Below are positions 12,141 through 64,000 of a DNA stretch of 64,000 bases, one piece after another. This DNA is from Candidatus Krumholzibacteriota bacterium. Its GTDB lineage: Bacteria; Krumholzibacteriota; Krumholzibacteriia; JAJRXK01. Each line of letters starts with the position of its first letter. Positions within the stretch are counted from its first letter, which is position 1. Made by a program: the position numbers and the translations under genes. The DNA lies in the NCBI GenBank assembly GCA_963806035.1, contig CAWDWO010000026.1, positions 136,092 through 200,091 on the forward strand, written 5' to 3'. The notes beneath the pieces were generated by a model. That model was not told the DNA's origin. It did not search any database and saw only the letters and a list, made by a program, of their open reading frames with translations.

Positions 12141-12215
12141 CATCTGCAAGACTCTACGCTCCCTTTTCGACCCTCCCCACCCCAATGACTGGGCAGGATC
12201 CAAGCCAAATTCCCC

Positions 12216-15627: not shown

Positions 15628-15655
15628 GCTGATTCTCCACGACGCGCGTACGCGT

Positions 15656-32063: not shown

Positions 32064-32157
32064 GGATTCCTTTTCCTCCTCGTCCTTGAAGGCGGGCCCT
32101 CTCCGGCCGCGCTTCTGCAGTCTATCCCAGCCCTTGGAAACCGCCAAGGGACGAGCT

Positions 32158-32628
32158 TCAGGGCAAATAGTAGTAGGCCAGCCCCAGGACAATCCCCAGG
32201 ACCACTCCCGCCAGGACATGGGCGGGCCGGTGGTTGTAGGAACTCCCCAGCAAGAGCTCCTGGAAGGAGAAGGGGCGCGCGAGACGCCCCTGGAGGCGCT
32301 GCGCGACCGCGAAGGCGAGAGTTCTCCCCTCCTCGACCCGGCCCTTCACCCTCATCGCGTCATGAAGAATGATAGCGCCATAGATCAGAACGGCATTGTA
32401 GGCCGGGTCCTGGCCCCCTCGCGCGCACCAGATGAGGGTCGCAAGGCAGGCGAACACGACCGCGTGCAGGCTGGGAAAACCGTTGGAGGACACCAGAATC
32501 TTCAAGTTCTTCTGCCGCTGAAGCGCCCAATACAGAACGAACTTCAGGATCTGGACCGCCAGCGCGGCCAGGATCACGAAAGCCCAAATGGGCAGGATCG
32601 CGCCGGAAGTGCCTTCCTCAGCGAGCAC
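32158..32628 (-). CDS. divergent PAP2-family membrane protein (YuiD/DUF212-like)
   Basis: GFPSLHAV motif (cf. GMPSSHSA) and 3-4 TM helices; inserted between ispA and dxs. Confidence 0.5.
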   Translation of the reverse strand: MLAEEGTSGAILPIWAFVILAALAVQILKFVLYWALQRQKNLKILVSSNGFPSLHAVVFACLATLIWCARGGQDPAYNAVLIYGAIILHDAMRVKGRVEEGRTLAFAVAQRLQGRLARPFSFQELLLGSSYNHRPAHVLAGVVLGIVLGLAYYYLP

Positions 32629-33508
32629 GATGCACCAGGGAATCGCAGAGCCAGTTCAGCTCGGGCGACCAGAGGGAAAGTTCCTGCAGCTGAGAAGTGG
32701 ATTGGGCCAGAAAGTCGCGCGCCAGCTCTTCGCTCCTCTGCTTGCCGTGCGCTCGGAGAATGGTCAGCTTGCCCTGCTTCTGATCCTTGCCGGGACTCTT
32801 GCCCAGCTCCTGCGCGCTGGCGGTTTCGTCCAGGATGTCGTCGACGATCTGAAACGCGATCCCCAGCCGCACCCCGGCCTCCTCCGCTCCATCCACTACC
32901 GCCGGCTCCGCCTGGGCGCAGAGAGCCCCCAGAGCGAAACTGGCCCCGATCAGCGCGCCCGTCTTGAGACGATGAATGGTCTCCACCTCGGGACCTCCGG
33001 TCTGCTCGGCCGCCATGAGGTCCCACTGCTGTCCGCTGGCCATTCCCTGCACTCCCGCGCTGCGCGCCAAGCGCAGCACACAGGCGCTGGCGAGGGCGGG
33101 CGGTGCGATCTCCGCCAGGAGCTCGAAGGCCAGCGTCTGCAGCGCGTCGCCGGCGAGAATGGCCGTCGCTTCGTCGAAACTGCGATGACAGGAGAGCTGT
33201 CCGCGACGCAGGTCGTCGTCGTCCATCGCGGGAAGATCGTCGTGGATCAGGCTGTAGGTATGGAGCATTTCCAAGGCGATGGCGGCGTTCCAAATCGCGG
33301 GAGTACGCTGCGGCGAGCCGCCGGCCGCATCGTGGACCCACAGCGCCAAGAGAGGGCGCAGGCGCTTCCCCCCGCCCATCAAGCTGTACTCCATCGCCTC
33401 CAGCAGCCGTGGGGCCGCGCCCTCGCGCGCGCGCAGAGCCCGCCCCGCGCGACGGGTCAGCTCCTCGGCGTCGCTCCTCATCCTGTCCTGCGGGGTCACT
33501 TCCGTCAT
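32618..33508 (-). CDS. ispA: (2E,6E)-farnesyl / geranylgeranyl diphosphate synthase
   Basis: First and second Asp-rich motifs (LIHDDLPAMDDDDLRRG and FQIVDDILD); ATG at 33508 overlaps the folD stop. Confidence 0.85.
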   Translation of the reverse strand: MTEVTPQDRMRSDAEELTRRAGRALRAREGAAPRLLEAMEYSLMGGGKRLRPLLALWVHDAAGGSPQRTPAIWNAAIALEMLHTYSLIHDDLPAMDDDDLRRGQLSCHRSFDEATAILAGDALQTLAFELLAEIAPPALASACVLRLARSAGVQGMASGQQWDLMAAEQTGGPEVETIHRLKTGALIGASFALGALCAQAEPAVVDGAEEAGVRLGIAFQIVDDILDETASAQELGKSPGKDQKQGKLTILRAHGKQRSEELARDFLAQSTSQLQELSLWSPELNWLCDSLVHRAR

Positions 33509-34392
33509 TGGCTCGAAGTCCCCGTCCTTCGACCGTGGGAGAGCACCGTGTTGGAGAGAAGCATGGCGATGGTCATCGGGCCCACTCCTCCGGGAACCGG
33601 AGAGATCCACGAGGCGAGCTCGGCCACGCCGGGATCGACGTCGCCCATCAAGCGCGTCCCCTTGGGCGCGTCGGCGTCGGGCACGCGGTGCATGCCGACG
33701 TCGAGTACGGCCGCGCCCTCTTTCACGTGTTCGGCCCGCAGCAATCCCGGGGTTCCCGCCGCGGCGACGATGATGTCGGCCTGTCTGCCCAGCTCGGCGA
33801 GACCATGACTTCTGGAATGGTAGATCGTGACCGTCGCGTCCACGCCCTTCTGCGATAGCAAGGCGGCCATGGGGCGTCCCACGATCAACGAGCGGCCGAT
33901 GACCAGCGCGCGCTTCCCCGCCACTTCGATTCCGTGTTCTTTGAGCAGGGCCATGCATCCCGCCGGAGTGCAGGGGACGAACCGCGCCTGACCGCTGGCC
34001 AAAAGACCCACGTTCTCCGGGTGCAGTCCGTCCACGTCCTTCTGCGGATCGATCCAGGAGCGCACTTGTGCCGGATCGATGGCCTCGGGCAAAGGAAGTT
34101 GAACGAGGAGGCCGTCGACTGCATCGTCAGCGTTGACTCTCTCGACCGCCGCACGGAGCTCGCGCGCACTGGTGCTCGCCGGCAGGCGTTCGACTCCGCC
34201 CACGATTCCCATTTTCGCGGCGGCCTTTTCCTTGTTGCGCACGTAGATCGCGCTGGCCGGATCCTCCCCCACCAGGATCACTTTGAGTCCCGGAGGCCGG
34301 ACTCCCTGATCGATGCGGCGCGCCACTTCTTGCGCGAGCTCTCCGCGGATCTTCAGGGCCAGAGCCTTACCATCCAGGATGCGGGCACTCAT
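33505..34392 (-). CDS. folD: bifunctional methylenetetrahydrofolate dehydrogenase / methenyl-THF cyclohydrolase
   Basis: MSARILDGKALA... start, GLKVILVGEDPASAIYVRNK, VGRSLIVGRPMAALL motifs; ATG at 34392 overlaps the ymdB stop. Confidence 0.9.
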   Translation of the reverse strand: MSARILDGKALALKIRGELAQEVARRIDQGVRPPGLKVILVGEDPASAIYVRNKEKAAAKMGIVGGVERLPASTSARELRAAVERVNADDAVDGLLVQLPLPEAIDPAQVRSWIDPQKDVDGLHPENVGLLASGQARFVPCTPAGCMALLKEHGIEVAGKRALVIGRSLIVGRPMAALLSQKGVDATVTIYHSRSHGLAELGRQADIIVAAAGTPGLLRAEHVKEGAAVLDVGMHRVPDADAPKGTRLMGDVDPGVAELASWISPVPGGVGPMTIAMLLSNTVLSHGRRTGTSSQ

Positions 34393-50212: not shown

Positions 50213-52072
50213 TCAAGAACCGCCGATGTATCCCAGCGACTTGAGCCGCTGAAGGTCAAGAGCCGAGCGCTTTGCGTGCGGCGTCCAGGCTGCTCGGCGT
50301 CCCCAGGTGGCCGGACCATCTTTGTCGCTTCCGGCCATGTCTTTGGCCGGGGGGATCCCCAGGATTCGCAAGAAGGACGGCGCGAGTTGAAGCACGGATC
50401 CCTCCCCCTTCGCCAAAGAAGATGGAATCGCCCATGCAAGCCGTTCCTTTTTCTGAACCCGCGAGAACACGAAGCAAAGTTCGCTGCCCTTGGGAACTTC
50501 CTCTACCACTTTCTGCAGCAATTCATCCAGAAAATTCGCATAGAGGACTTCCAGCCGCTCTCCCATCTCCTTGGAAGGACCGGCCGGAATTCGCCTCACC
50601 GCCCGCTCCAGAATGTCCGCGCCCCCCAGATGACAGATACGTCCCTGCTGGGCGTCAGTGCCCATTCCCTTCAGGATCAGTGAGGAGTGAAAGAGATCAC
50701 TGGCGAGCGCGTAGCGCCAGGCCTCGGCCACCTCTTGCAGGTCGTGCAGGGGCAAGTTGTTCAGAAGGGAATCGCCTCGCACCAGGGAGGAATACCCGCT
50801 CTGCTCCATGAGGGCCGCCCGCAGATCGGCCAAGAGCCCCTCTTGCGCCGGTTGCACGAGCAGGGTGTCTGCCGCTGAGTCCGCGCCCTCCCACAGGCGC
50901 AAAAAACAGCGATCGCTGACCACGGTGAGGCCCTCGTGGCGCGCGGCGGGGTAGGTCGCCCAGGCGTTCACCACCTCCATTTTCAAACCCATCCGCACCG
51001 CGATCTCCCAAAACGGAGGACGGAGGAGTTCTCGCTGATCGTGAGCCTTCTCCTTGGTCAATCCGATGCCCGGGAGCAGTCCACGGAGCATCAGCGCCAA
51101 CAGGGGTTGGCGACGCGCCCGGGTCAAATCGCTCGCCACCCCCTTGGGCCCGCTGGAGGACGCGCGGTTGAGGCCGTGAACCTCCGGCGGAAATCCGGTG
51201 GCGACACAATTCCAGAAACTCTCCGGGTGCAGCGCGAGGCCCGGGGCTTGCAGGGTCCGCGCGGGCTCGCCGAGCTGGCGCTGGAGTCCGGGAAGGTCGG
51301 CGGGACTTTCCCCGTCCACCGTGAACAAGATGAGGCTTCGTTTTGGTGCGACCGTCACCGCGGGATGGACTTCGTCCAGGGTGGGAAGCGGCCGCAGATG
51401 ACGGTAGGGTCCCAAGAGAAGGAGTCCCGCTGCCAAGACGAACAACAGCAAGATGACCCGCGGGGTGTGGCGCGCGCTCTTTCTCTCCTCATCGAGTTCG
51501 AACTGATCCAATCGAACGACGGCCAATAGAGCGCGAAAGAGCCTTCCGAAGGCCACCCCGAGCGCGGCGCAGAACAGACTCGCCAAGAGAGCGGCCACGA
51601 ACCAGGTGGAGCCATGAATCTTGGGCAGGACGAAGCGTCCCACCACATCGCTCAAATACAGCCCGAAGAGTAGCGAGGAGACGAAGAACACCGCCAACTC
51701 GCCGCGGCGGCGTGCGGAGAAGCCGTTCCGGCGCGCGCTGAGGAGGAGCGGATAACTGAGCAAGCTCACCAGGACCCCACCCGAGATCGCGGCCGCCAGC
51801 ACCAGGTCGAAACTCAACCACAGAAGATCGTGGAGCTTGTCGAGGATCTCCGTCTGCGCAACCGCCACGGAGACCGTGAGCAAGAGACCGGTGAGAGCTC
51901 CTCCTCCCGCTCCCAGCCACAGCCCGGCCAAGAGAGCGCTGCGCGAGGGGCTGCGGCCGCGCGAGACTTTCTCCGCGACGAAGGTCTCCACCGGAGAACG
52001 CAGATAGCCCAGTTCGCGGAGCCGGGCCAGTCCTTGCCGGAGACGTTCTTCGTCTTGGGGACTGCGCGGCAT
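50213..52072 (-). CDS. membrane protein with ~5 N-terminal TM helices and a C-terminal alkaline-phosphatase-superfamily (nucleotide-pyrophosphatase / LtaS-like) domain
   Basis: Five hydrophobic helices in the first ~230 aa, then LILFTVDGESPADL and ATGFPPEVHGL (cf. NPP TGLYPESHG) AlkP-core motifs; translationally coupled (3-nt spacer, AAGGAA RBS) to the upstream polyprenyl synthase. Confidence 0.5.
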   Translation of the reverse strand: MPRSPQDEERLRQGLARLRELGYLRSPVETFVAEKVSRGRSPSRSALLAGLWLGAGGGALTGLLLTVSVAVAQTEILDKLHDLLWLSFDLVLAAAISGGVLVSLLSYPLLLSARRNGFSARRRGELAVFFVSSLLFGLYLSDVVGRFVLPKIHGSTWFVAALLASLFCAALGVAFGRLFRALLAVVRLDQFELDEERKSARHTPRVILLLFVLAAGLLLLGPYRHLRPLPTLDEVHPAVTVAPKRSLILFTVDGESPADLPGLQRQLGEPARTLQAPGLALHPESFWNCVATGFPPEVHGLNRASSSGPKGVASDLTRARRQPLLALMLRGLLPGIGLTKEKAHDQRELLRPPFWEIAVRMGLKMEVVNAWATYPAARHEGLTVVSDRCFLRLWEGADSAADTLLVQPAQEGLLADLRAALMEQSGYSSLVRGDSLLNNLPLHDLQEVAEAWRYALASDLFHSSLILKGMGTDAQQGRICHLGGADILERAVRRIPAGPSKEMGERLEVLYANFLDELLQKVVEEVPKGSELCFVFSRVQKKERLAWAIPSSLAKGEGSVLQLAPSFLRILGIPPAKDMAGSDKDGPATWGRRAAWTPHAKRSALDLQRLKSLGYIGGS

Positions 52073-52075
52073 CGG

Positions 52076-52960
52076 CTAGTTCCTTCTGGATGCGACGAAG
52101 GAGCAGAGTTCACGCAGAAGCGGATCGGGATTCTCCAGATGAACCAGGCTGTCGCTTGCCGTCGCCAGGAGTCGATTCATGATTTCCTCGCTGGCCTCGG
52201 CTCCCAGCGAGCTGACGAAGGTCGCCTTGCCTCGATCCTTGCGCGCGTCCTTTCCCATTTCCTGCGCGTGCCCGAATGCGTCCAGGAGGTCGTCCTTGAT
52301 CTGAAAGGCCAACCCGAGATTTCGTGCGTAATTGGCCGCGACTTCCTCCAGGCGTTCATCCCCCTTGCTCAGGCGAACTCCCGCGCGCGCGCAAGCTCCG
52401 AAGAGTTCGCCGGTCTTGTGCCGGTGAATGTACTCGAGTGTATCGAGCTCGCGCATCTGTGCCGGGAGATGGAGATCGACGTGTTGTCCGCCGATCATCC
52501 CATTCACGCCGACCGCCCTGGCGAAGAGCGCGGTGAGTCTCAGGTGCTGATTCTTCGCGTCGACTTCGCCCAGAATTTCGAAGGCCCGCGCCAAGTTGGC
52601 CGTCGCGACCAGGATCGCGGTATCGACACCGAAGACCAGATGGCAACAGGGCAATCCCCGGCGCGTACGCGCGTCATCCATGCTCGGCAGATCGTCCAGA
52701 ATCAGAGAAGCGCTGTGGATCAATTCCACCGCGGTCGCCGCATCCAGCACGAGTTTCTCGTCCGCCCTCGCCGCGGAGCGCGACCACAGATCGATGACGG
52801 CGGCGCGGATGCGCTTGCCGGGAGCAAGCAGAGTATAGCCGAGAGCTTCCCGCAGGCGTGGGGTATGAGCGTGCTCTTTCGCTTCGACGGCGGCAAGGAG
52901 CCGTGGATGAAGGTGGCGGGCAAACTCTTCCAGATACTTCGCGAGAGACGCATCTCCCAC
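52076..52960 (-). CDS. polyprenyl diphosphate synthase (short-chain trans-IPPS family; second copy in the window)
   Basis: First Asp-rich motif LILDDLPSMDDARTRRG and second FQIKDDLLD; 294 aa. Confidence 0.8.
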   Translation of the reverse strand: MGDASLAKYLEEFARHLHPRLLAAVEAKEHAHTPRLREALGYTLLAPGKRIRAAVIDLWSRSAARADEKLVLDAATAVELIHSASLILDDLPSMDDARTRRGLPCCHLVFGVDTAILVATANLARAFEILGEVDAKNQHLRLTALFARAVGVNGMIGGQHVDLHLPAQMRELDTLEYIHRHKTGELFGACARAGVRLSKGDERLEEVAANYARNLGLAFQIKDDLLDAFGHAQEMGKDARKDRGKATFVSSLGAEASEEIMNRLLATASDSLVHLENPDPLLRELCSFVASRRN

Positions 52961-52982
52961 AATCGTTCCTCCCCTGCCGCCC

Positions 52983-54104
52983 CTACTTCGCCGCCATCCG
53001 ACGAAGCAAGCGCGCCGTAGCCTCTACCATGGTCTCCTGATCGAAGTTCCGCAACACATGCTCGCGGCCGGCCACCCCCATGGCTTTCGCCCGCTCGGGC
53101 TCGCCGAGCAGTTCATCGATTGCCTGGGCAAGGGCGCTCGCATCCGACGGCGCCACGAGCAGTCCGGTCTTCCCTTCCACCACCATCTCCTCGATCGAAC
53201 CCACCCGGGTGGAGATGACCGGGAGCTCGGCAGCCATCCCTTCCAGTACACACAGCGGGAAGGTCTCGACAACGGGGTGCGAGCAGAGGACGAGGAGATC
53301 AGCAAGAGAGAGAATCCGCGGCACGTCGTCGCGAAGTCCCAGCCAGTGGAGACGATCGCTGACGCCGAGCTTGTCCGCGTGCGCCCGGATGGCGGATTCA
53401 CGCGCGCCCGTTCCCACGATGGCCAAATGGGCTCGAGGCTCGTGAGCACTGCTCTGCAACGCTTCGAGAATCAGCTCGTGGTGCTTTTCGGGACGCAAAG
53501 CGGCGACGATGATCAGGAGCGGGTTCTGCAGGGGAAGTCCGAGTTCGCGTCGGAGCGCAACCCGCTCCTCGTTGGAAGGACGTGGCGCGAAGCGGTGCGT
53601 GTCGATTCCGTTGTGGATGACGGCGATCCGCTCCGGCGCGATTCCCATTTCCTCTTGCAGATAGCTCGCCTGCCGGTGGCTCACCGCGACCACCGTATCG
53701 GACAGGGGCATCAGGACCCGATCCAGCAGATTGAGACTGGGGCTGCCGTCAGCACGTCTGGTGCGATGCACCGCGCAGAGCTGATGCGGGACGCCGGCCA
53801 GGCGTGCGGCCAGCCGTCCCAAGAAGAGGGCGTTGCCGTGATCGAGGACGTAGAGCAGGTCGCAGGAGAGGCCGGCCAGGTGACGGACGAGACGCGGCAG
53901 GGCAAGGAGAGACTTGGGCTCTGGCAGCAGTTGAGCTTCGACCTCTACCCCCGCGGCCTCGATCTCCGAGCCGATTTCTCCCAGTCCGCGGAAGGTCGTG
54001 AGCGCCGTCTCGATGCCCTGCCCTGGAAGTCCCAGACAGAGCGACTGGACGACCCGCTCGGCGCCTCCCACCGGCAGACGGTCGGCCAGAAAGCGAACTC
54101 TCAA
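52983..54104 (-). CDS. family 4 (GT-B) glycosyltransferase
   Basis: RVRFLADRLPVGGAERVV N-terminus typical of GT4; C-terminal EGMAAELPVISTRVG...E motif; probable TTG start at 54104 (the upper part of the 695-aa track ORF is an artefact over WbpB). Confidence 0.7.
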   Translation of the reverse strand: MRVRFLADRLPVGGAERVVQSLCLGLPGQGIETALTTFRGLGEIGSEIEAAGVEVEAQLLPEPKSLLALPRLVRHLAGLSCDLLYVLDHGNALFLGRLAARLAGVPHQLCAVHRTRRADGSPSLNLLDRVLMPLSDTVVAVSHRQASYLQEEMGIAPERIAVIHNGIDTHRFAPRPSNEERVALRRELGLPLQNPLLIIVAALRPEKHHELILEALQSSAHEPRAHLAIVGTGARESAIRAHADKLGVSDRLHWLGLRDDVPRILSLADLLVLCSHPVVETFPLCVLEGMAAELPVISTRVGSIEEMVVEGKTGLLVAPSDASALAQAIDELLGEPERAKAMGVAGREHVLRNFDQETMVEATARLLRRMAAK

Positions 54105-54121
54105 TTTGCTGCTCGGGGAAT

Positions 54122-55159
54122 TCAGCGCGGGCTCCCCACCCCATTCAATTCGATGGCCGCACCGCCGTCGGAAATGGATCGACAGGCGGCTTCCAGAACT
54201 TCCACCACCTTGAGACCATTGGCTCCGTCGCTCAAGGGATTCTTCCCCTCCCGAATGCACTCGAGGAAATGCTGGGCTTCGGTCTTGAGCGGTTCGGCTT
54301 CTTCGATGCGCGGCAGGACGATGTCTCCGTAACGGTAGCTCAGATGGAATTCTCCAAAGCTGTCGTAGTGCGGCATCTTGGTGACGCCCTTGTCGTACAC
54401 GCGCAGCTTTTCCAGGTTGGAGGTGTCGTCGTAGACCAGCATCTTCCTGCTGCCCACCACGGTGACCCGTCGGATCTTGTTGGGATCGAGCCAGCTCACG
54501 TGCAGATGAGCCCGCACGCTTCCCGGGTATTCCAGGTCCACGAAGGCCACGTCCTCGATTCCCGGTTGTACGAAGGCGTTGCCGGTGGCGTGCACTTTCA
54601 GAGGATGCGAGTCGAGCAGGTAGCCGAGAATGGAAATATCGTGCGGAGCGAGGTCCCAGACCACGTTCACGTCCTCGCGAAAGAGCCCGAGGTTCACGCG
54701 GGTCATGTTGATGTAGAAGATCTCCCCGAGTTCGCCCTCCTCGATGAGCTGACGGATCCTGCGCACCACGGAATTGTAGAGGAAGGTGTGCCCGACCATC
54801 AGGACCTTTCCGTTGCGTTCGGCCGCGGCGATCATGCGGTGGCACTCGTCCACCGTGGTGGCCATAGGCTTCTCCACGAAGACGTGCTTGCCGTGGTTCA
54901 AAGCCCTGACTGCGATCTCCTCGTGCTTGTCGACCGGCGTGGCCAGCACGATGGCGTCGACCGAGGGATCCTCGATTGCGTCCGAAGCATTCCGGCTGAC
55001 TTGCAGGGCCGGATAGAGCCCCTGCATGTGGCTCAGACGCTCTTCGTCCAGATCGACGGCCCAGGCGCACTGTGTATTGGGAAGAGATGCGAAATTGCGC
55101 ACGAGATTGGGTCCCCAGTACCCAACCCCGATGACACCAACGCGAATGGGAGCGCTCAT
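54122..55159 (-). CDS. Gfo/Idh/MocA oxidoreductase, WbpB/WlbA-like (UDP-GlcNAcA 3-dehydrogenase-type)
   Basis: IRVGVIGVGYWGPN Rossmann start at M23, EKP motif (VFVEKPMA), dimerisation-domain C-terminus; genomic association with a DegT aminotransferase and the WbpA-like dehydrogenase. Confidence 0.7.
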   Translation of the reverse strand: MSAPIRVGVIGVGYWGPNLVRNFASLPNTQCAWAVDLDEERLSHMQGLYPALQVSRNASDAIEDPSVDAIVLATPVDKHEEIAVRALNHGKHVFVEKPMATTVDECHRMIAAAERNGKVLMVGHTFLYNSVVRRIRQLIEEGELGEIFYINMTRVNLGLFREDVNVVWDLAPHDISILGYLLDSHPLKVHATGNAFVQPGIEDVAFVDLEYPGSVRAHLHVSWLDPNKIRRVTVVGSRKMLVYDDTSNLEKLRVYDKGVTKMPHYDSFGEFHLSYRYGDIVLPRIEEAEPLKTEAQHFLECIREGKNPLSDGANGLKVVEVLEAACRSISDGGAAIELNGVGSPR

Positions 55160-55211
55160 TGGTGGTCCTCGGTTTAGAGACTGATTTCTGGCATTTGGAA
55201 TCGGGGGGTGA

Positions 55212-56045
55212 TCAGTACGCCCCATCTCCCTTCAGGAGCACGGGAATCGTCTTGAAGATGATCCTCAGATCCATCGCGAGACTCCAATGCGTGATGTAAT
55301 GCAGATCCAGCATTACCATCTCGTCGAAGGGCACTCGGCTGCGGCCGCTGACCTGCCAGAGACCGGTGAGTCCCGGCTTGGCTTTCAAGCGATCCTTGTG
55401 CCAGTCCTGGTAGTGGTCCAACTCGTAGTGAATGGGCGGACGCGGCCCGACCAGGCTCATCTCGCCTTTCAGGATGTTCCAAAACTGTGGGAGTTCATCG
55501 AGGCTGCTCTGCCGCAGGAAGGTGCCGATGCGTGTCACGCGCGGGTCGCTGATCATCTTGAAGACGCGTCCCCCCTGGCGACTTTCCATCTTTCCGTTGA
55601 TGAAACTCTGGGCAAAGCTGCGATGGACCGATTCATCGTTGTTATGATGCATCGTCCGGAACTTATAAAAAGTAAAAGGGATACCGTTCTTACCCAAACG
55701 GGTTTGCCGGAAAAACACCGGGCCGCGCGAGCTACACTTCACGGCGAGGGCGAGGAAGAGGAAGAGCGGAGCTCCCACCACCAAGACCAATGCCGAAAAG
55801 AAGAGATCCATCGCGCGCTTTACGCCCAATTGGAGCTGTGATTGTTCCAGCCTGCCGATGCGAAGACTGAAGACCTCGGCCGCTTCCAATTGCTTTTCCA
55901 GCGTTGCGAGATTCAAGGCTGTCGCGTCTTTCTTCATTTCTGGAGCCGTCCCTGCGCTGAGCTGCACTTCACGGTGATCAATGGCCGACCCGAAACAGGC
56001 GCCCGGCCCTTTCAAACCAGGCACGAGGTCCAACAGGTTTTCCAT
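55212..56045 (-). CDS. polyprenyl glycosylphosphotransferase (bacterial sugar transferase, second copy)
   Basis: TM helix plus Bac_transf motifs ([33 protein letters not shown]); an alternative ATG at 55937 is possible. Confidence 0.75.
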
Positions 56046-56071
56046 CCGAAACCCGAAGCGAGCGTCTCGCC

Positions 56072-57184
56072 TCAGGATTCGAGTTTCAGCAACACCTCGC
56101 TGACGTAGTCCACCATCTCATCGTCCAGCTCCGCAAAGATGGGAAGCGAGACAATCTGATTACAGATCGCTTCGGCAATCGGAAATTCACCGTCACGACC
56201 CAGGCTAGAGAAAGCAGGGTGCTGGTGCACCGCCAGGGGGTAATGCGCCCCATGTCCGATCCGGTGCTCCTTGAGCAGTTGCTTGACCTTCTCTACCTCG
56301 GGATGGTTGACCACGAACAGATGATAGACAGGCTCCGCCCCTTCTTGGGGTTGCGGCATCCGATACCGAGTACCGGCGAGTCGTTCTCGATACCGCTTGG
56401 CCACGCGACGGCGTCCGTCGTTCCAGTCGTCCAGGTGTGCCAACTTCACCTCGAGAACCGCCGCCTGCAGAGAATCGAGTCTCCCGGTGGTTCCCACGAG
56501 GCTATGGATGTTCTTCTCGAGCTGACCATGATGGCGCAAAGCCACCACTTTCTCGGCCAGTTCGGGTTCGTCCGTCACCACGGCGCCACCGTCGCCCATC
56601 GCGCCCAGGTTCTTCCCCGGGTAGAACGAAAAGGCCGCGGCGGTGCTGCTGCTGCCAATGCGAGAAGATTTCCAACGTGCGCCGTGTGCCTGCGCCGCAT
56701 CCTCCAGTAGCACGAGCTCATGCTTCCGCGCGAGTGCGCGCAGTGCATCGAGATCGCAGGGAATGCCGTAGAGGTGCACTGCGAGGATCGCCTTGGTGTT
56801 GGGAGTGATCTTCTCCTCCACCGCGGCGGGATCCATGAGCCAGGTCTCGGGGTCGACATCGCTGAGAACAGGAGTCGCCCCCACCGCGAGAATTGCCTCG
56901 ACCGTGGCCACGAAGGTATTGGGGACGGTGATGACCTCGTCCCCGGGTCCGAGCCCGGCCGCCTGCATCATCAGTTGAAGGGCCATGCAGCCCGAGCTGA
57001 CGCCAACGCAGCGCGCGGCTTCGCAGTAATCCGCAAACGCGGTTTCGAAGGAAACCACGGAGGGACCCAGAATAAATGCATTCTGGTCGATGACGCGCGC
57101 CATCGCGGTGTTGATCTGGTCACGAAGGGGGCCGTTTTGGGCCATCAGGTCCAGGAACGGTACCTGTTGGATATCGGTTCGCAT
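56072..57184 (-). CDS. DegT/DnrJ/EryC1-family PLP aminotransferase (WbpE-like)
   Basis: 370 aa from the ATG at 57184 (MRTDIQQVPFLDL...); conserved PLP-lysine region SFYPGKNLGAMGDGGAVVT; the upper 300 aa of the track ORF are an antisense artefact. Confidence 0.85.
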   Translation of the reverse strand: MRTDIQQVPFLDLMAQNGPLRDQINTAMARVIDQNAFILGPSVVSFETAFADYCEAARCVGVSSGCMALQLMMQAAGLGPGDEVITVPNTFVATVEAILAVGATPVLSDVDPETWLMDPAAVEEKITPNTKAILAVHLYGIPCDLDALRALARKHELVLLEDAAQAHGARWKSSRIGSSSTAAAFSFYPGKNLGAMGDGGAVVTDEPELAEKVVALRHHGQLEKNIHSLVGTTGRLDSLQAAVLEVKLAHLDDWNDGRRRVAKRYRERLAGTRYRMPQPQEGAEPVYHLFVVNHPEVEKVKQLLKEHRIGHGAHYPLAVHQHPAFSSLGRDGEFPIAEAICNQIVSLPIFAELDDEMVDYVSEVLLKLES

Positions 57185-57430
57185 GACCTTGGCAGTATAG
57201 CATAGAAAATTGGGGGATTCCAAGAGGCTCAATGCGACACTTTTCGCCAAGCAAGTTCCCTTCCAACAGGGGCTTAGCCTGGCCCTCCCGGCCCTCCCCC
57301 CGAGGATCCCCGGCCCGAGCCCGCCGGGCGGCGCCGGGCCAGCTCCCTTCCCGCTCTGCGCTCGCCAGCTGGCCCGCACTCTGCTAATCTTCGAGTTCGG
57401 GCCGAGAAGCGCACTTTCGGGGAGGATTCC

Positions 57431-58309
57431 ATGAGGCTGCTCATCACCGGCGCGCGGGGCATGATGGGAAGGGACCTTCGCGCCGCGGCGGAAGCCGCGG
57501 GGCACGAGGTCTGGGGGACCGATATCGCCAAGCTGGAAAAGGACCCCAAGGACCGGCTGGACATCAGCGCCCACGAGGCCGTCGCGGAGGCCCTCGACCG
57601 CTTCCAGCCCGACTGGGTGCTCCACCTGGCCGCCCTCACCGACGTCGATCACTGCGAGCGAGTGCCCGAGGATGCCTGGCGAGTCAACGCCCTGGGCACC
57701 GAGAGCCTGGCCATGCTCTGCCGCGATCGTGACTGCGGATTGCTCTACGTTTCGACGGGCAGTGTCTTCCCCGGTGACAAGAATCTCCCCTACCACGAGT
57801 TCGATTCTCCGGGACCGGTGAGCGTCTACGCGCGCAGCAAATACCTGGGCGAGGAGTCGGTGCGTCGTCTGGTTGCCCGGCACTATGTCGTTCGCGCGGG
57901 CTGGATGTTCGGAGGCGGGCCCGAGGACAAGAAATTCGTGGCCAAGATGATCGATCGCGCGCGAGCGAGCGAGCTGCTGCTCGCGGTGGATGACAAGACG
58001 GGGTCGCCCACTTACACGGTCGACATCGCGCGCCGCTGCCTCGAACTCTTGTCCACGGAGAGATTCGGCACCTATCACGCCGCGAACGAAGGCGCCTGCA
58101 CGCGCTTTGAAATGGCGCAGGCGATCCTGCAAGCCGCCGGCATCGAAAACTGCGAGGTGCAACCTTGCTCCTCGGCACAGTTTCCGCTCGCGGCCTTCCG
58201 TCCCCCTTCGGAGAGTCTCGAAGGGCTGCGCGCCAAGTTGATCGGACTTGCGCCCATGCGTGACTGGCGCCTCGCATTGAGCGAGTACGTCCAGACCACT
58301 TTTCGCTGA
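57431..58309 (+). CDS. RmlD-like NAD(P)-dependent sugar-nucleotide reductase / epimerase (dTDP-4-dehydrorhamnose reductase family)
   Basis: MRLLITGARGMMGRDL Rossmann start, YARSKYLGE (YxxxK); GGGGAGG RBS; convergent with the flanking minus-strand genes. Confidence 0.75.
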   Translation: MRLLITGARGMMGRDLRAAAEAAGHEVWGTDIAKLEKDPKDRLDISAHEAVAEALDRFQPDWVLHLAALTDVDHCERVPEDAWRVNALGTESLAMLCRDRDCGLLYVSTGSVFPGDKNLPYHEFDSPGPVSVYARSKYLGEESVRRLVARHYVVRAGWMFGGGPEDKKFVAKMIDRARASELLLAVDDKTGSPTYTVDIARRCLELLSTERFGTYHAANEGACTRFEMAQAILQAAGIENCEVQPCSSAQFPLAAFRPPSESLEGLRAKLIGLAPMRDWRLALSEYVQTTFR

Positions 58310-58322
58310 GCCACGACTCGGC

Positions 58323-60431
58323 TCAGCGGATGAGGCTCAACTTCTGCGAGCTGCTCTGCGCTCCCGCTTTCAAGACGGCAAAGTAGGTTCCCGAGGATGC
58401 CTCTCCTCCGCGTTCGTCTCTGCCATCCCAGACGAGCACTCCTGAGAGGGGCCAATCTCCCCCGCTCTTCAGGGTGCGCACCCGACGCCCACGGGCATCG
58501 TAGATCGCGAGCTGGGCGCTGCTCTCGCCCGGCGGCAGCTCGTAGTGAAGGGTCGTCCGTGGATTGAAGGGGTTGGGAACCGCGGGCGCCAAACTCACCG
58601 CCACCGGAATCCGGGTCACCGCGGGTCCGCTGGTCACCACGTCACTGCCCGAGCGCGCGATACGAAATCCGATATAACTCTGACTCTCCTCGGCGAGCTC
58701 ACCGCTGCGATAGCCGTTGCGGCAGCCGGCCCAGTCGAAATTGTAGCCGCCGCCGCGGATCACCCGGTACTGTGTGTACCCATACGAGCCGCTCTCCAGG
58801 GGATCGTTCACGCTTCCTGAAAGCTGGTAGGACCAGGTCCACGGATCCTCGCACCACTCGAAGGCGTTGCCCGCCATGTCTCTCAGTCCGAAGAGATTGG
58901 GCGGGAAGGAACCCACCGGCGCCAGTCCTTCCCACACGTCGGCTCCCCCGGTCCCATAGTAGTTGGCGTAGTCGTGCACGTAGTCGGAAGAGTCATCCCC
59001 CCACCAGAAGCGCGTGTAGCCCGGGGTTCCCGGAGTGGATCCGTAGCCGCCGCGCAGCGCGTACTCGAACTCCGCATCGGTGGGAAGCCGCCAGCCATCG
59101 CTTCCCGGAACCGGCGTGACCCCGTCATAGGCCGGGGTGGTTCCGTCCAGTCCGCTGCGCCAGTTACAGTAGGCCAGGGCTCCGTACCAGCTCACCTCAA
59201 CGATGGGCTCGTGGACATCGACGGAATCCTTCGCGGAATAGACTCCCCCGAGCTCTTGGATTTGACACTGGGCGTCGCCCAGATCGACGCAGGGGTATCC
59301 GGCGTAGAGATTGGAACCCGTGTCGTTGAGGAAGGCCAGGTACTGGGCCACCGTGATCTCGGTCACCGACATCACGAAGGGCGACAGAGTCACCGTATAT
59401 CCGGTGGACACCTGATAGCTCTCATAGCGGGGATCGACGTGGTCCCCCATGTCGAAGGTGCCCGCAGGGAGATCCGAGACGAAGGGTGGCTCCGGCCCCG
59501 GGGTGACCGTTGGAGCCGGATCGCTGGCTTGGGCAAGCTTGTTGGTCCAGTAGTCCAGATTGTAGCTCTCGAGCGGATTGAAATTGGTCCCCCAGGGCGA
59601 GAAGAGCTGCAGGGAGATCTGCCCGCCGCTGGAACGGTAGAAGATTACCGCATCGCCGCTGGGATTCCCGCCGGCGTGATAGCCCGAGGCGATCAAAGTG
59701 ACTCCATCGAGCACGTCGTAGAAAATCCCCGGATTCAAATCGGTATAGCCGGTGTCCCCGCAGTACATCGTGACCGGCTTGAGCTGCGCCACCGCCTTGA
59801 TGTGGGGCCAGATCTCGTCGAAGAACTCGTTCACGTCGTATCCGCGCGTGGAGAACTCGTCGTACCAGGCGTTTCCCATCTTGCGGATGACTTCGTAGCG
59901 CGGGTGAGTCTTCACCCAGGCCAGGTGGTGCTGCACGATGAGAAGATCGCTGACGCTGGGATCGCTGGCCGCCTGCGCCAGTTCATTCACGATGAAGTTG
60001 AAATGTTCCTGGTCGGGATTTCCGTTGGGAGATTGCGAGGACCACAGAAAGATCACGCGCGTCGAGTCGTAATCGCTGCGCCAGGTGTCGTCTCCCCAAC
60101 GCGAATACCACTCGCCCATGTTTTCGCTGTCGTGATTGCCCAGCACGGGAACGAAGGGGAAGCTCCACTTCCCGGCGTAGGTGGCCTCGAGGCTGTCCCA
60201 TTCCGCGGGCGCCCCGGAGAAAGTACAGTCTCCCCCGGCGATGTAGGCATCGGGTCCGTAGTGGGGCAGGCTGTCCACGATGGCCTGAAAGCCGGGGCAG
60301 GGCTTCTTGTCCGCGGTCAGGCCGTACATGTGGCCGCCGAGGACCAGGAAGGAGTTGGCGAGTGCAGAAGCGGGCCATCCGGCCAGAATTCCCAGCGCCA
60401 GGAACCAAGCCATGAAGCTTCGCGCGCGCAT
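58323..60431 (-). CDS. secreted three-domain protein: calcineurin-like metallophosphoesterase + formylglycine-generating-enzyme (FGE-sulfatase) family domain + T9SS-type C-terminal sorting domain
   Basis: Signal peptide MRARSFMAWFLALGILAGWPASALA from the ATG at 60431; GNHD and DLLIVQHH phosphoesterase motifs; FGE-like GLRDMAGNAFEWCEDPW...YRVIRGGGYNF...GFRIAR; C-terminal ~90 aa NPFNPRTTLHYELPPGESSAQLAIYDARGRRVRTLKSG...GTYFAVLKAG match the por-secretion-tail (T9SS CTD, FlgD-Ig-like) pattern. Confidence 0.65.
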   Translation of the reverse strand: MRARSFMAWFLALGILAGWPASALANSFLVLGGHMYGLTADKKPCPGFQAIVDSLPHYGPDAYIAGGDCTFSGAPAEWDSLEATYAGKWSFPFVPVLGNHDSENMGEWYSRWGDDTWRSDYDSTRVIFLWSSQSPNGNPDQEHFNFIVNELAQAASDPSVSDLLIVQHHLAWVKTHPRYEVIRKMGNAWYDEFSTRGYDVNEFFDEIWPHIKAVAQLKPVTMYCGDTGYTDLNPGIFYDVLDGVTLIASGYHAGGNPSGDAVIFYRSSGGQISLQLFSPWGTNFNPLESYNLDYWTNKLAQASDPAPTVTPGPEPPFVSDLPAGTFDMGDHVDPRYESYQVSTGYTVTLSPFVMSVTEITVAQYLAFLNDTGSNLYAGYPCVDLGDAQCQIQELGGVYSAKDSVDVHEPIVEVSWYGALAYCNWRSGLDGTTPAYDGVTPVPGSDGWRLPTDAEFEYALRGGYGSTPGTPGYTRFWWGDDSSDYVHDYANYYGTGGADVWEGLAPVGSFPPNLFGLRDMAGNAFEWCEDPWTWSYQLSGSVNDPLESGSYGYTQYRVIRGGGYNFDWAGCRNGYRSGELAEESQSYIGFRIARSGSDVVTSGPAVTRIPVAVSLAPAVPNPFNPRTTLHYELPPGESSAQLAIYDARGRRVRTLKSGGDWPLSGVLVWDGRDERGGEASSGTYFAVLKAGAQSSSQKLSLIR

Positions 60432-60432
60432 G

Positions 60433-61596
60433 CTAGGCGCTCCCGTTCCGCGCCGGCACCCCCGCTGAGCTTTGGGAGAGCGGTTCTCCTCTGAGCGAGG
60501 CATAGAGACTCTCATAGGCGGCCGCGATGGAGTCCCAGGCGTACTCGCGCATGCAGCGCTCGTAGAGCCGCGCGCTCCATTCTTCGAGCCGCGGATCCGT
60601 CAGGGCAGCCTGGAGTCGCTCCGCGAGTGAATCCGAATCCTTTGTGCGATGAAGGTAGGGATAGTCCGGGACGAGCAGCTCACGGTTGGCGGGAATGTCT
60701 GAACAGAGAACGGGGCGTTTGCAGGAGATCGCCTCCAGCAGCATCATCGACATCGCCTCGTATTCGGAGGGAAACACGAAGAGCTTGCAGTTTCGCACCA
60801 GCTCCAAAAGCGCCTCCCTCCCCAGCAGCCTGCGCTGTGCCACGATCGAGGCGTCGGCTGCGATCCTTGCGTCCACTTTCGCGCTGTAGGCCGCATCGTG
60901 CGTGAAGTCGCCGACGACGCACAATTTCAACGGCGTATCCATTTTCTCCCAAGCACTCAGGAGATGGTGGAGTCCCTTGGTGGAATCGAGCCGGCCGCAG
61001 GCGAAGAGGACGTAAGCCCGGGGCCTCAGTTCCATGCTGCTGAGATCGAGACTCTCGGGGTGGCTGTCCTGAAAATAAGGATCGACACCGTTGGGGATGT
61101 ACTCCACCTGCTTGCGGCTCCACAGCCCATTCACCCGCTCTTTGAAACGAGAGACCGAACTCAACCGGTGGCAAAACTGCACGAAGAATCTCTCGGAAAT
61201 CTTGAGATAGAGCTTGGCGAAGCGACCCCACTTCTGACGCGTGTAGGGGTCGCCATGGAAAGTCCCCAGGACGGGAACCCTGAATTTGAGGCGCAGGAGG
61301 GGAACGAAAATACCGAAATCCGAATTGTGCACGTGGGCAAGATCGTAGCGGCCCTTGAGGAGGTAGTGCACGCAGCACAGAAAGAAATAGCTGAACGACC
61401 CGAGATGCTTTCCGCTGAGCGCGGGGACGTGGATGAAATGCAGATTGTCGTGGCAGACGGTGGTTGAGGACGTGTCCTTCCGCAGGTAGATCCAGTAGTC
61501 ATTCTCCGCGGAGAAGTTCTCCAGGAGCTTCTCGACGACCCTGTCTGCCCCTGCCACCGCGGGCAAGGTCTTGATCCCCAGGATGGCGACATTCAT
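60433..61596 (-). CDS. family 4 (GT-B) glycosyltransferase
   Basis: MNVAILGIKTLPAVAGADRVVEKL N-terminus; C-terminal FVFPSEYEAMSMMLLEAISCKRPVLCSD (E..E motif). Confidence 0.75.
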   Translation of the reverse strand: MNVAILGIKTLPAVAGADRVVEKLLENFSAENDYWIYLRKDTSSTTVCHDNLHFIHVPALSGKHLGSFSYFFLCCVHYLLKGRYDLAHVHNSDFGIFVPLLRLKFRVPVLGTFHGDPYTRQKWGRFAKLYLKISERFFVQFCHRLSSVSRFKERVNGLWSRKQVEYIPNGVDPYFQDSHPESLDLSSMELRPRAYVLFACGRLDSTKGLHHLLSAWEKMDTPLKLCVVGDFTHDAAYSAKVDARIAADASIVAQRRLLGREALLELVRNCKLFVFPSEYEAMSMMLLEAISCKRPVLCSDIPANRELLVPDYPYLHRTKDSDSLAERLQAALTDPRLEEWSARLYERCMREYAWDSIAAAYESLYASLRGEPLSQSSAGVPARNGSA

Positions 61597-61607
61597 CCGC
61601 GAGACCT

Positions 61608-62741
61608 CTAGCGATTGAAGAAACCGTTTTCGAACTGGCCATATTGCCGGCTCTCGTCGGGCTGCATGACAGCCTTTTGGCGTTTCCCCAGATAGCTTTC
61701 GCGCCGCACGATGTTCTCGTCCTGATGCACGATGGAATAGTCGACATATTTCTCGAACGGGATGCGAATTCCCAAGATGCTACGGAGCTTGTTTCGCATC
61801 ACCCAGAGCAGGGGTTTCATCCGCGGCAGTTTCGCGTAGTGCTCGTTCCGCATCGCGGTCTTGGCCGACGCCACCATCCAACAGTTCTGGGTGCAGGCCG
61901 CGACCTTCTGCCGTTGCTCCTTGGCCAGCGGTGAGGACATGATCTCTTTCCAGCTGGCCTGCAGAAGGTTGCCCATCTTGAGATCGGGGCGGACGTTGCA
62001 AGCGTAGACGTCACTCCACGGATCGATGAAGGCGAACATGCTTCCGGCAGTACAGGGGATGAGACGGTCGTGCCCCAGAACTTTGGCGATGAGACCGAGG
62101 TTCAGGTAAGCGCGGAATAGAGTCTTCGCGTCCCAGGCCTTCATCATTTCGCTGACCAGATCCTCCACCCGGCTCGCGATGGCGCGGCGGTCGTAGGGAA
62201 CGTTGTCATCTTTGTGGAACTGGAATCCGTTGTGGAGCGCCGAGGTCGCGAACTCCACCCCCTTGTCGCGACTCATGACGTACAGGTCGACGATCTCGTC
62301 CACGTTTTCGTCCTGGAAAGTGGTCGCGAAGCCCAGGTCCCTCCCCCCTGCTTCGATCAGGGCATCCATGCACTCCATCTTCTTGGAGAAGCCCTCTTTC
62401 TCGCCGCGGATGCAGTTGTTCGTGGCCTCGAATCCCTCCACGCTGATGCGAATCTTGATGTCGGGATGGCGCTTCACGATGGGGACCAGCTTGTCCGGGT
62501 GAAGGCCGTTGGTGGAGATCTCCATCGTGCACGCCTTGGGCGACAGGACGTCGACGATCTCTGCGAGATCCTTGCGGAGGGTCGGCTCGCCCCCGGTGAG
62601 GTTCAGGTGGTCGAAGCCGCCCGGGAGCTGTTCCAGAGTCTCGAGGGTCACTTCGCTATTGGTCCGCGTCGGATTCTGCCAGATGTTGCACATCGAGCAA
62701 CGCGAGTCACAGCGGTAAGTGAGGATCACGGACAGATCCAT
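61608..62741 (-). CDS. radical SAM enzyme with a C-terminal SPASM-like Cys-rich domain
   Basis: CxxxCxxC at residues 11-18 (CDSRCSMC) followed by GGEPTL; C-terminal Cys pattern C-x5-C...C-x3-C (IPCTAGSMFAFIDPWSDVYAC...AACTQNC) typical of SPASM/twitch auxiliary clusters; GAGGTGA RBS. Confidence 0.7.
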   Translation of the reverse strand: MDLSVILTYRCDSRCSMCNIWQNPTRTNSEVTLETLEQLPGGFDHLNLTGGEPTLRKDLAEIVDVLSPKACTMEISTNGLHPDKLVPIVKRHPDIKIRISVEGFEATNNCIRGEKEGFSKKMECMDALIEAGGRDLGFATTFQDENVDEIVDLYVMSRDKGVEFATSALHNGFQFHKDDNVPYDRRAIASRVEDLVSEMMKAWDAKTLFRAYLNLGLIAKVLGHDRLIPCTAGSMFAFIDPWSDVYACNVRPDLKMGNLLQASWKEIMSSPLAKEQRQKVAACTQNCWMVASAKTAMRNEHYAKLPRMKPLLWVMRNKLRSILGIRIPFEKYVDYSIVHQDENIVRRESYLGKRQKAVMQPDESRQYGQFENGFFNR

Positions 62742-62957
62742 GGATCACCTCGAAGATTCGAAAGGAACGACGCGCAACTCTCGGAGAGGATGGGAGCCCT
62801 TTCCGCATGTTCGGAAAAGACGGAGATACAGCCGCAAACGTCGCATGATTTGGCTTTAGAGCCTTTTTCTACTGGGATCCCCGCCAGGAGAATCAGTATA
62901 GCACTCTTGCCCCGTCGCAAGCAATCTAGCGGCCCCGAGAAATCTCGCGAGTACGGC

Positions 62958-64000
62958 TCACCGGGGCCGCGTTTCGAACACACGAACCCCGGCGGCCTCA
63001 TGCAGCAGGGACCAACTTTCCGGGGGATGGAAGACATAGGCCGGTAGTGTGGCTGCCACGGGCCGCCCCTGGCCCCCCTCGGGACCGCCATACTTCTTCA
63101 AGGAGGCCGCGTCGATGACCGCCAGTCCTTCGGGCAGGGTGGCGGGATTGCGATACCAGTTCAGGTAAGCGATCCGCCCGCCCGGCCAGGGATCGGTCCG
63201 CACCATCCTGGCATCGTCATCACTCCCGTGGTAGAGACCGCGCATGTCTTTGTAACGCAGCTCGTAGGCCAGGCGAATTCCGGTGCGCCAATGGTCCACC
63301 AGGATGGGGAGCTGCGAGTGCTCCTCCGCCAGATGGGCAACTGATCTCCAGGTCTCGTATCTCGGGACATCAAGCCTTCGAAACCGGACGACCTGATACC
63401 CGTAGAGTCCAAGTTCCAAAAGCAGGACTCCCACCGCCCCCACACGCAGAGCGTTGCGTAGCGCGCGACGCCGCAGAAAAGGCGCGCGTGGATTGGGCGC
63501 GAGGCCCAAGAGCTGTGAAACGCCCCACGCTCCCAGGACCGCGGCCGGGATGCTCAGCGGGGTGAGAAAGCGCAGTCGCTTCAGAATGGGCAGGTAGCTG
63601 CCAAGGCTCATGGATCCGAATTCCAGGAAGCAGAAGATCACGAGGATCCACAGGAGCAGACTGCGCGCCTCCTTCGAGCGCCACACCAGTGCGAGCATTG
63701 CCCCCAGCATGAGAAACCACGGGTGCAGTCCCGTCAGACTCAGGGGCGCAATCAGAGTCGAGGGGTACATGCTAAGCCTGGCCGGTTCGGCCAAGACGCC
63801 ACTGCTATAGACCTGAGACACCACCTCCGCCCGGTAAAACGGATTTCCAGTGGCCAGCCCGTACAGCAAGAGCAGTCCACCGATTACCGTGAGGCTACCG
63901 AGAGCCACTTGGAACACCTTCGTCCCGCGGACTCTGCGCACCAGAGCATCGATGACGACGTAGGCCGCAAGGATCAGTGCATAGGGTCGAATGACCGCGG
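62958..64000 (-). CDS. polytopic membrane protein with a soluble C-terminal domain (GT-C-like, ArnT/PMT-type architecture), partial; 5' end beyond the window
   Basis: Seven or more hydrophobic helices then a ~150-aa soluble tail; the frame stays open to the window edge; family assignment is tentative. Confidence 0.4.
   Translation of the reverse strand, partial: AVIRPYALILAAYVVIDALVRRVRGTKVFQVALGSLTVIGGLLLLYGLATGNPFYRAEVVSQVYSSGVLAEPARLSMYPSTLIAPLSLTGLHPWFLMLGAMLALVWRSKEARSLLLWILVIFCFLEFGSMSLGSYLPILKRLRFLTPLSIPAAVLGAWGVSQLLGLAPNPRAPFLRRRALRNALRVGAVGVLLLELGLYGYQVVRFRRLDVPRYETWRSVAHLAEEHSQLPILVDHWRTGIRLAYELRYKDMRGLYHGSDDDARMVRTDPWPGGRIAYLNWYRNPATLPEGLAVIDAASLKKYGGPEGGQGRPVAATLPAYVFHPPESWSLLHEAAGVRVFETRPR

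Follow-up and report, generated by a model that had tools for sequence, protein, structure and literature searches.

Introduction

Full SPASM domains of radical S-adenosylmethionine (rSAM) enzymes carry seven cysteines and hold two auxiliary iron–sulfur (Fe–S) clusters, and Twitch domains hold one. In anaerobic sulfatase-maturating enzymes (anSMEs), seven or eight SPASM cysteines coordinate a pair of auxiliary [4Fe-4S] clusters, and formylglycine-generating enzymes (FGEs) depend for catalysis on a copper-binding cysteine pair (C336 and C341 in the human enzyme). In Porphyromonas, A-type lipopolysaccharide (A-LPS) anchors type-A proteins with a C-terminal sorting domain, and the linking sugar needs WbpB/WbpE-type enzymes. 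For exopolysaccharides of Gram-positive bacteria, the available text of one report describes cotH, a polyphosphate-polymerase gene and a DUF4956 gene as accessory genes contiguous with pel operons (10.1101/768473), and that of another describes lower Pel levels and aggregation after deletion of the CotH-like and DUF4956-like genes in S. intermedius (PMC12345266). Here we analyze three adjacent genes at positions 58323–62741 of a 64,000-nt stretch of Candidatus Krumholzibacteriota DNA (GCA_963806035.1, contig CAWDWO010000026.1, positions 136,092–200,091; hereafter the window). They encode an rSAM enzyme, a family 4 glycosyltransferase (GT4) and a secreted fusion protein with a metallophosphoesterase-like domain, an FGE-fold domain and a C-terminal domain of the kind sorted by a type IX secretion system (T9SS). 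A preliminary description had taken the three genes for one undescribed system in which FGE-type and rSAM-type maturases stand side by side.

We conclude that two independent cell-envelope modules, both uncharacterised, have probably come to lie side by side specifically in this lineage, within a surface-glycan locus of Krumholzibacteriota; one module is the rSAM–GT4 pair and the other the fusion. None of the three proteins matches a characterised family above its curated cut-off, and to that extent the locus is undescribed, as had been proposed, but it is neither one triad nor a pair of maturases. Each module consists of uncharacterised members or variants of superfamilies already known, and neither is a new kind of system.

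Results

All three genes lie on the minus strand. The rSAM gene (61608–62741; 377 aa) is followed after 11 nt by the GT4 gene (60433–61596; 387 aa), and the GT4 stop codon is separated by 1 nt from the ATG (60431) of the fusion gene (58323–60431; 702 aa), so that the close same-strand packing noted earlier agrees with the open reading frame (ORF) coordinates. An alternative fusion start at an ATG at 60515 found no support, given that homologues are likewise about 702 aa long.

The rSAM–GT4 pair recurs far beyond this lineage. From 181 matched GTDB species-representative stretches encoding the rSAM we sampled 80, which gave 77 evaluable loci, and neighbouring genes were counted with tblastn. 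In 60 of the 77 loci, drawn from at least 12 phyla, the gene directly downstream on the rSAM strand encodes a homologue of the window GT4, and the projected gap has a median of 30 nt. The lineages are Krumholzibacteriota, Eiseniibacteriota, Acidobacteriota, Ignavibacteriota, Bacteroidota, Actinomycetota, Verrucomicrobiota and other PVC lineages, Chloroflexota, Omnitrophota, Deferribacteres, Nitrospirota, Planctomycetes and Pseudomonadota (many Bradyrhizobium). Across phyla the rSAM is 56–66% identical, whereas the GT4 spans 24–93% in the pair loci and 24–51% outside the Krumholzibacteriota loci, a difference consistent with a small-molecule substrate that is conserved. A second GT4, with a four-cysteine (Cys4) insert, lies directly upstream of the rSAM gene in 37 of 70 loci, making a GT4–rSAM–GT4 cassette; this gene is missing from the lineage of the window. 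This upstream GT4 is about 420 aa long, and its insertion, CP-x(6-14)-CxxC-x(8-20)-C, is zinc-ribbon-like (for example in L004, L008, L010, L012, L030, L037 and L049). Elsewhere the cassette is accompanied by genes for Bac_transf, DegT, GFO, epimerases, O-antigen ligase and AsnB-type amidotransferases. A literature search for rSAM enzymes together with glycosyltransferases or polysaccharides turned up no report of what a pair of this kind does.

The fusion joins the pair in a much narrower group. It lies downstream only in L001, L002, L003 and L007, the closest Krumholzibacteriota loci of the sample, and is missing from two further Krumholzibacteriota loci, L004 (rSAM 74% identical to that of the window) and L006 (69%); in L004 a DegT gene directly follows the GT4 gene. 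The order rSAM–GT4–fusion is kept in five genomes, with fusion proteins 65–88% identical to that of the window, and the closest genome locus, in a Candidatus Krumholzibacteriota metagenome-assembled genome (MAG), has an rSAM 97% identical. The notion of a single triad does not hold against a pair present in 60 of 77 loci to which the fusion is added in four.

Away from the pair, the fusion and its phosphoesterase domain keep other company. Three distant fusions with usable contigs (P0125, P0126 and P0127; 41–48% identity) have no rSAM or GT4 nearby and sit beside CotH-domain proteins with T9SS tails; that of P0126 is also beside VTC and DUF4956. Among seven sampled stand-alone homologues of the phosphoesterase domain, six lie in or beside DUF4956/CotH/VTC clusters (L085, L087, L088, L090, L091 and L092) and the seventh was sampled at a contig end. 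The two settings meet in L003, a Krumholzibacteriia MAG whose rSAM is 80% identical to that of the window: here rSAM, GT4 and fusion are followed by VTC, CotH and DUF4956, then by RmlD on the other strand and by DegT. The VTC–CotH–DUF4956 block of L003 (10782–14748, about 4 kb) thus stands between fusion and RmlD, and the window, L001 and L007 show the same arrangement minus the block, which is why the fusion abuts RmlD in the window (junction 58309–58323). A tblastn search of the window found nothing for CotH, VTC or DUF4956. CotH/VTC/DUF4956 adjacency of the fusion or its domain was seen in L003 and nine other loci. The order in L003, together with the contexts of the distant fusions and of the stand-alone homologues, therefore suggests that the fusion is a satellite of the CotH module that moved downstream of rSAM–GT4 in one clade; it belongs to the CotH-module family by homology, and the module is not intact in the window.

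No Pel genes are among the called neighbours of the six stand-alone loci, which come from diverse metagenomic bacteria and contrast with a remark in the available text of PMC12345266 that the synteny of cotH, polyphosphate polymerase and DUF4956 was not found outside pel loci. The DUF4956–CotH–VTC cluster of L092 also contains PPK2.

The rSAM identification stands as first described. Radical_SAM (4.7e-15, 56.6 bits; cut-off 29.5) and SPASM (27.7 bits; cut-off 21.5) both exceed their Pfam thresholds, and the CX3CX2C motif reads CDSRCSMC at residues 11–18 (C11, C15 and C18). Because this motif begins at residue 11 the protein has no N-terminal domain, and no RiPP recognition element (RRE; RiPP, ribosomally synthesised and post-translationally modified peptide) was found at its N-terminus. 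The C-terminal SPASM/Twitch-type domain has only four invariant cysteines (C230, C248, C283 and C287), a number compatible with a single auxiliary cluster and so with a Twitch-like or partial SPASM domain. All NCBIfam models stay below their cut-offs; the mycofactocin maturase MftC scores best, with 77 of the 265 bits needed. An AlphaFold2 model (pLDDT 81.6) shows alternating beta and alpha elements, and Foldseek places it about equally close to SkfB, CteB, BlsE, anSME, MoaA, DesII and BtrN, BlsE giving the best TM-score (TMt 0.67) and anSMEcpe an E-value of about 1e-8. A profile search of PDB sequences gave eight matches, among them SkfB, PqqE, BlsE and MoaA; anSME chains are absent from these eight. 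The architecture likened earlier to that of anSMEs is therefore shared only as far as the SPASM-family domain goes, and the likeness is as generic as that to SkfB, BlsE or MoaA. A screen for anti-phage defence genes with PADLOC gave only a weak similarity of the rSAM to the pVip type (41.7 bits) and nothing for GT4 or fusion, and a role in defence was discarded.

For the second gene, Glycos_transf_1 (5e-23, 81.9 bits) and Glyco_transf_4 (2.2e-13, 51.0 bits) are both above cut-off and confirm a GT4, with no equivalog-level NCBIfam match. TIGR04157, the rSAM-associated glycosyltransferase of Bacteroidetes RiPP loci, was considered and discarded at 22.4 bits against a cut-off of 400.

The composite architecture reported for the fusion is upheld by Pfam and NCBIfam models, Foldseek and inspection together. 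The N-terminus (MRARSFMAWFLALGILAGWPASALA|NS) is by inspection a Sec signal peptide, and it is followed by the variant metallophosphoesterase domain (59532–60356, about residues 26–300), the FGE-fold domain (58653–59474, residues 320–593) and a beta-sandwich domain of sorting type (58326–58577, residues 619–702). Full-length relatives number about 10 among 5.8 billion protein clusters. The C-terminal domain matches TIGR04183 Por_Secre_tail (24.4 bits; cut-off 23) and FlgD_ig (30.9 bits; cut-off 27). Unrelated secreted proteins of Krumholzibacteria and Acidobacteriota (P0143 and P0144) end in the same tail. None of the T9SS machinery genes (SprA/Sov, PorU/V, PorK/L/M/N) was seen among the ORFs scanned in the window.

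The phosphoesterase domain scores 20.8 bits against Pfam Metallophos (cut-off 21.5) when the whole fusion is searched and passes, with 23.1 bits, when isolated. For residues 1–300 an AlphaFold model (pLDDT mostly 70–90) predicts a metallophosphoesterase fold, and Foldseek matches this model to purple acid phosphatase (1ute, E 1e-9), Rv0805 (2hy1, TMt 0.66–0.69) and GpdQ (3d03), the three structures spanning E-values of 1e-9 to 2e-8 and TMt 0.58–0.69. A word-indexed search with this domain returned two proteins and an exhaustive HMMER search 220 representative clusters, mostly stand-alone proteins of 330–370 aa that match positions 59487–60359 of the window. Alignments of fusions and stand-alone proteins show H34, G67-D68, G98-N99-H100(-D101), H168 and G225-D226-x-G228 to be invariant, as are an Asn and a further Asp. 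Of the five metal-binding motifs (DxH, GDxxD, GNHD/E, H and GHxH), II–IV are retained; the motif-I Asp is never present in the family (G32-G33-H34 in the window) and GHxH is replaced by an invariant GDxG. Because the motif-I Asp and GHxH are absent and the other motifs kept, the M2 metal site looks complete and the M1 site non-canonical. Judged by these alignments, the strict conservation argues for a working, if unusual, phosphoesterase active site.

In the FGE-fold domain, PF03781 is matched at 2.3e-41 (142.6 bits) and FGE chains of the PDB at about 1e-16, and the domain also matches PorK/GldK and PvdO, with 104.9 bits against the NCBIfam GldK model (cut-off 350). A HMMER alignment to human FGE pairs C336 of the human enzyme with F565 and its C341 with C570. 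Across ten members of the fusion family the former position is never Cys and the latter is Cys in 8, and we therefore regard the catalytic pair as absent. This argument uses the sequence alignment only, given that the AlphaFold2 model of the whole fusion is poor at residues 460–580 (pLDDT <50). PDB entry 5aoh, matched by residues 407–530, is labelled ‘Spore coat protein CotH’ in the sequence file and CarF in the Foldseek library; the match is to the FGE-fold domain and not to a kinase domain, and the label looks like a naming inconsistency in the deposit.

Composition gives no sign of a recent acquisition of the rSAM and GT4 genes. The slightly lower GC noticed by eye is real, if small (0.591 for rSAM and 0.596 for GT4, against about 0.60–0.66, or ~0.63, in the other genes computed), and values as low recur elsewhere in the window: the segment at 55–56 kb has a GC of 0.568, and the sugar-transferase gene there is lower still than rSAM and GT4, at 0.566. 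However, GC at third codon positions (GC3; 0.82 and 0.78) and codon-bias scores (0.288 and 0.204) fall within the range of 21 other genes (GC3 0.72–0.84). It is the first and second codon positions that are poorer in GC, which reflects amino-acid composition. The genes also belong to a stretch that is collinear with L001. The fusion gene has a GC3 of 0.80 and a normal codon score.

The three genes stand at one end of a glycan-assembly locus of about 47.8–63 kb. Its other genes encode a GT4, a SPOR protein, a 619-aa membrane protein, a polyprenyl synthase, a second GT4, a GFO/IDH/MocA oxidoreductase (WbpB-like), a Bac_transf initiating transferase and a DegT aminotransferase, with RmlD on the opposite strand. 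RmlD, a dTDP-4-dehydrorhamnose reductase (57431–58309, plus strand; TIGR01214, 251.7 bits, above cut-off), is convergent with the fusion gene and lies 13 nt from its stop. On the minus strand 5' of the rSAM gene, at 62895–62924, is a promoter-like element (TTGCTT, an 18-nt spacer and TGC-TATACT) that the window, L001 and L007 conserve and L003 retains in part; a consensus scanner is silent on it because the -35 hexamer matches at 3 of 6 positions only. Nucleotide collinearity with L001 extends over 11.3 kb (51615–62951) at 87% identity and then ends, about 210 nt upstream of the rSAM gene, which is the first gene of the block common to the window and its relatives. Beyond this point (62951–63941) the window encodes a membrane protein of 327 aa that matches nothing in Pfam, NCBIfam or PADLOC, and L001 has in its place a penicillin-amidase gene and a PMT_2-type GT-C gene.

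Further observations concern the remainder of the window and other loci of the sample. A second, exosortase-type polysaccharide locus occupies 1480–16738 and includes a sigma-54 response regulator, a PAS histidine kinase, Bac_transf, an EpsH exosortase (10275–11102), a Wzz/GNVR co-polymerase and a Wza-type Poly_export protein. DXP synthase and two polyprenyl-synthase genes lie at 30129–33958 and 52076–52960, and the polyprenyl-synthase gene embedded in the glycan locus could supply lipid carrier. In five Vicinamibacterales loci a gene for a canonical secreted metallophosphoesterase (Metallophos 4.2e-11; L037:12259-13209) follows rSAM–GT4 and precedes an O-antigen-ligase-like gene. We rejected its membership of the fusion's family, since hhalign relates the two at superfamily level only (probability 79.5%, motifs II–III), and we ascribe its position to coincidence or convergence. 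In Bradyrhizobium (L049, L058 and L070), GT4–rSAM(–GT4) adjoins an HlyB-like ABC transporter, HlyD and a DUF4910/DUF2172/HTH_47 aminopeptidase-like protein, a context that suggests a link to type I secretion in rhizobia.

Discussion

The juxtaposition of two modules, which we consider the probable explanation, would work as follows. The rSAM and GT4 of the first module, elsewhere often arranged as GT4 (Cys4 insert)–rSAM–GT4, would be cytoplasmic, and the rSAM may use the 5'-deoxyadenosyl radical and a putative single auxiliary Fe–S cluster on a nucleotide- or polyprenyl-linked sugar intermediate. The change could be an oxidation, epimerisation, dehydration or decarboxylation, as in BtrN, DesII and BlsE, and the flanking GT4 or GT4s would install or extend the altered sugar. 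The fusion, as the second module, would be exported by Sec and brought to the cell surface through its C-terminal domain by a T9SS-type route. Its variant metallophosphoesterase appears to be a regular fourth member of DUF4956–CotH–VTC (polyphosphate-polymerase-like) clusters and might hydrolyse a phosphoester or polyphosphate linkage of an extracellular polymer, while the FGE fold, C-type-lectin-like and lacking the cysteine pair, would serve as a binding module and generate no formylglycine.

Several points weigh against this explanation. The spacing between GT4 and fusion genes, 1 nt in the window, is also tight (about 1–4 nt) in L001, L002 and L003 and implies co-transcription, and the fusion may therefore be functionally recruited to the glycan pathway in this clade. 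The families of all three proteins are biochemically uncharacterised, and the best sequence and structure matches of the rSAM are peptide maturases (SkfB, MftC, PqqE and CteB). The M1 site of the phosphoesterase domain looks degenerate, and the domain may not be catalytic. The association with CotH comes from 11 sampled loci and not from a census, and the difference in the VTC–CotH–DUF4956 block could be a loss in the lineage of the window or a gain in L003.

The alternative that survives best, although we think it unlikely, is that the three genes form a true functional unit in this clade, in which a glycan made by rSAM and GT4 anchors or modifies T9SS cargo, by analogy with the A-LPS of Porphyromonas, or the surface enzyme trims the glycan built by the pair. 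Tight spacing on one strand behind a single conserved promoter-like element, an order kept in five genomes with fusions 65–88% identical to that of the window, and WbpB-like GFO and DegT genes in the same locus all fit such a unit. However, the pair is common in groups not known for T9SS (Bradyrhizobium, Actinomycetota and Chloroflexota), distant fusions were never seen with it, and the fusion is missing from L004 and L006, which retain the locus.

It is improbable that the rSAM–GT4 pair makes a glycosylated RiPP instead of modifying a polysaccharide precursor. Such a role would agree with the peptide maturases that head the sequence matches (MftC at 77 bits, PqqE and SkfB) and with the ABC/HlyD exporter beside the cassette in Bradyrhizobium, but all family scores are far below their cut-offs, and the neighbours in most phyla are glycan-assembly genes. 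The rSAM–GT4 core, with gaps of about 30 nt, contains no conserved small ORF, and the sole upstream mini-ORF is deleted in L007; we set this reading low because neither an RRE nor a precursor was found. The ABC protein of Bradyrhizobium looks HlyB-like, since its N-terminal domain by inspection lacks the C39 catalytic Cys.

We give still less credence, and judge it very improbable, to the view that the fusion is a decaying remnant left in the lineage of the window after loss of the VTC–CotH–DUF4956 block. The block is indeed present in L003 and absent from the window, L001 and L007, but the fusion ORF is intact with all family-invariant residues kept, the protein is 85–88% identical over its full length to those of L001 and L007, codon usage is normal at a GC3 of 0.80, and the genome may carry a CotH block at another place.

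That FGE-type and anSME-type maturases act together here, for instance on a sulfatase-like or T9SS-sorted substrate, has next to no likelihood and is largely refuted: FGE-sulfatase and SPASM matches are both present and anSMEcpe is a structural neighbour of the rSAM, but the FGE cysteine pair is not retained, the rSAM has four C-terminal cysteines where anSMEs have seven or eight and no anSME match among PDB sequences, no sulfatase was found among the ~45 window ORFs scanned, and the rSAM occurs with GT4 in phyla entirely without the fusion.

The dual formylglycine-maturase claim thus fails and is not a basis for pursuing the locus. Two leads are worth keeping, the widespread GT4–rSAM–GT4 cassette and the phosphoesterase partner of CotH–VTC–DUF4956. 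From Bradyrhizobium to Chloroflexota, members of the rSAM family keep about 60% identity and nearly always have a GT4 as partner, and the family has no curated model; cultured carriers (Bradyrhizobium spp. and Leptolinea tardivitalis) make this lead testable. The variant phosphoesterase accompanies CotH–VTC–DUF4956 in diverse bacteria, and the trio is found well beyond pel loci, so that a phosphoesterase partner is to be weighed beside the kinase and polyphosphate-polymerase genes when the function of the trio is considered. We offer the two leads jointly as a tentative and rather doubtful proposal. The cassette of at least 12 phyla would carry out an undescribed radical modification of sugars for surface glycans, and the variant phosphoesterase would be an unrecognised fourth DUF4956–CotH–VTC component of an extracytoplasmic polyphosphate or phosphorylation system by which exopolysaccharide is decorated or remodelled. 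The Krumholzibacteriota version would then have arisen by fusion of this phosphoesterase to a lectin-like FGE fold and a T9SS tail and by its recruitment into the cassette operon.

Compared with known systems, the rSAM is closest in outline to the sugar-modifying enzymes BtrN, DesII and BlsE. Like these it has a single domain, no RRE, cysteines enough for one auxiliary cluster and a C-terminal beta-hairpin with a GX4C-type motif, and GT4 genes adjoin it as they do in sugar pathways. Sequence identity to them is 12–18% only, and the rSAM stands apart from them in a highly conserved family of its own, whose members are about 376 aa long, end in a distinctive C-terminal tail and have no curated model. 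With anSMEs it shares the rSAM core and a SPASM-family C-terminal domain, and it differs in having four auxiliary cysteines against seven or eight and a GT4 as partner, with no sulfatase found among the window ORFs scanned.

The FGE-fold domain shares its fold with SUMF1 and with the non-catalytic relatives PorK/GldK, PvdO and the C-terminal domain of EgtB, and it keeps the SUMF1-type motifs RLPTEAEWE, GNxxEW and RGG...GFR. It lacks the copper-binding cysteine pair, unlike SUMF1 and like PorK/GldK and PvdO, and its score falls well short of the GldK cut-off. A further difference is that it is joined to a phosphoesterase and a domain of sorting type. The phosphoesterase domain has the predicted fold and motifs II–IV (GD, GNHD and H) in common with purple acid phosphatase, Rv0805 and GpdQ, whereas the motif-I Asp is Gly or another residue and GHxH is GDxG.

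The accessory genes of Gram-positive pel operons belong to the same three Pfam families that adjoin the L003 fusion and the homologues of its domain, and in both cases CotH–VTC–DUF4956 lies in or beside exopolysaccharide loci. The available text of the pel papers (10.1101/768473; PMC12345266) names DUF4832 or DGC/PDE (diguanylate cyclase/phosphodiesterase) and no metallophosphoesterase partner. Unlike the Gram-positive pel carriers, the organisms here are Gram-negative and FCB-type, with T9SS tails on their CotH proteins, and the window differs further from pel loci in that its CotH block was lost or was never there.

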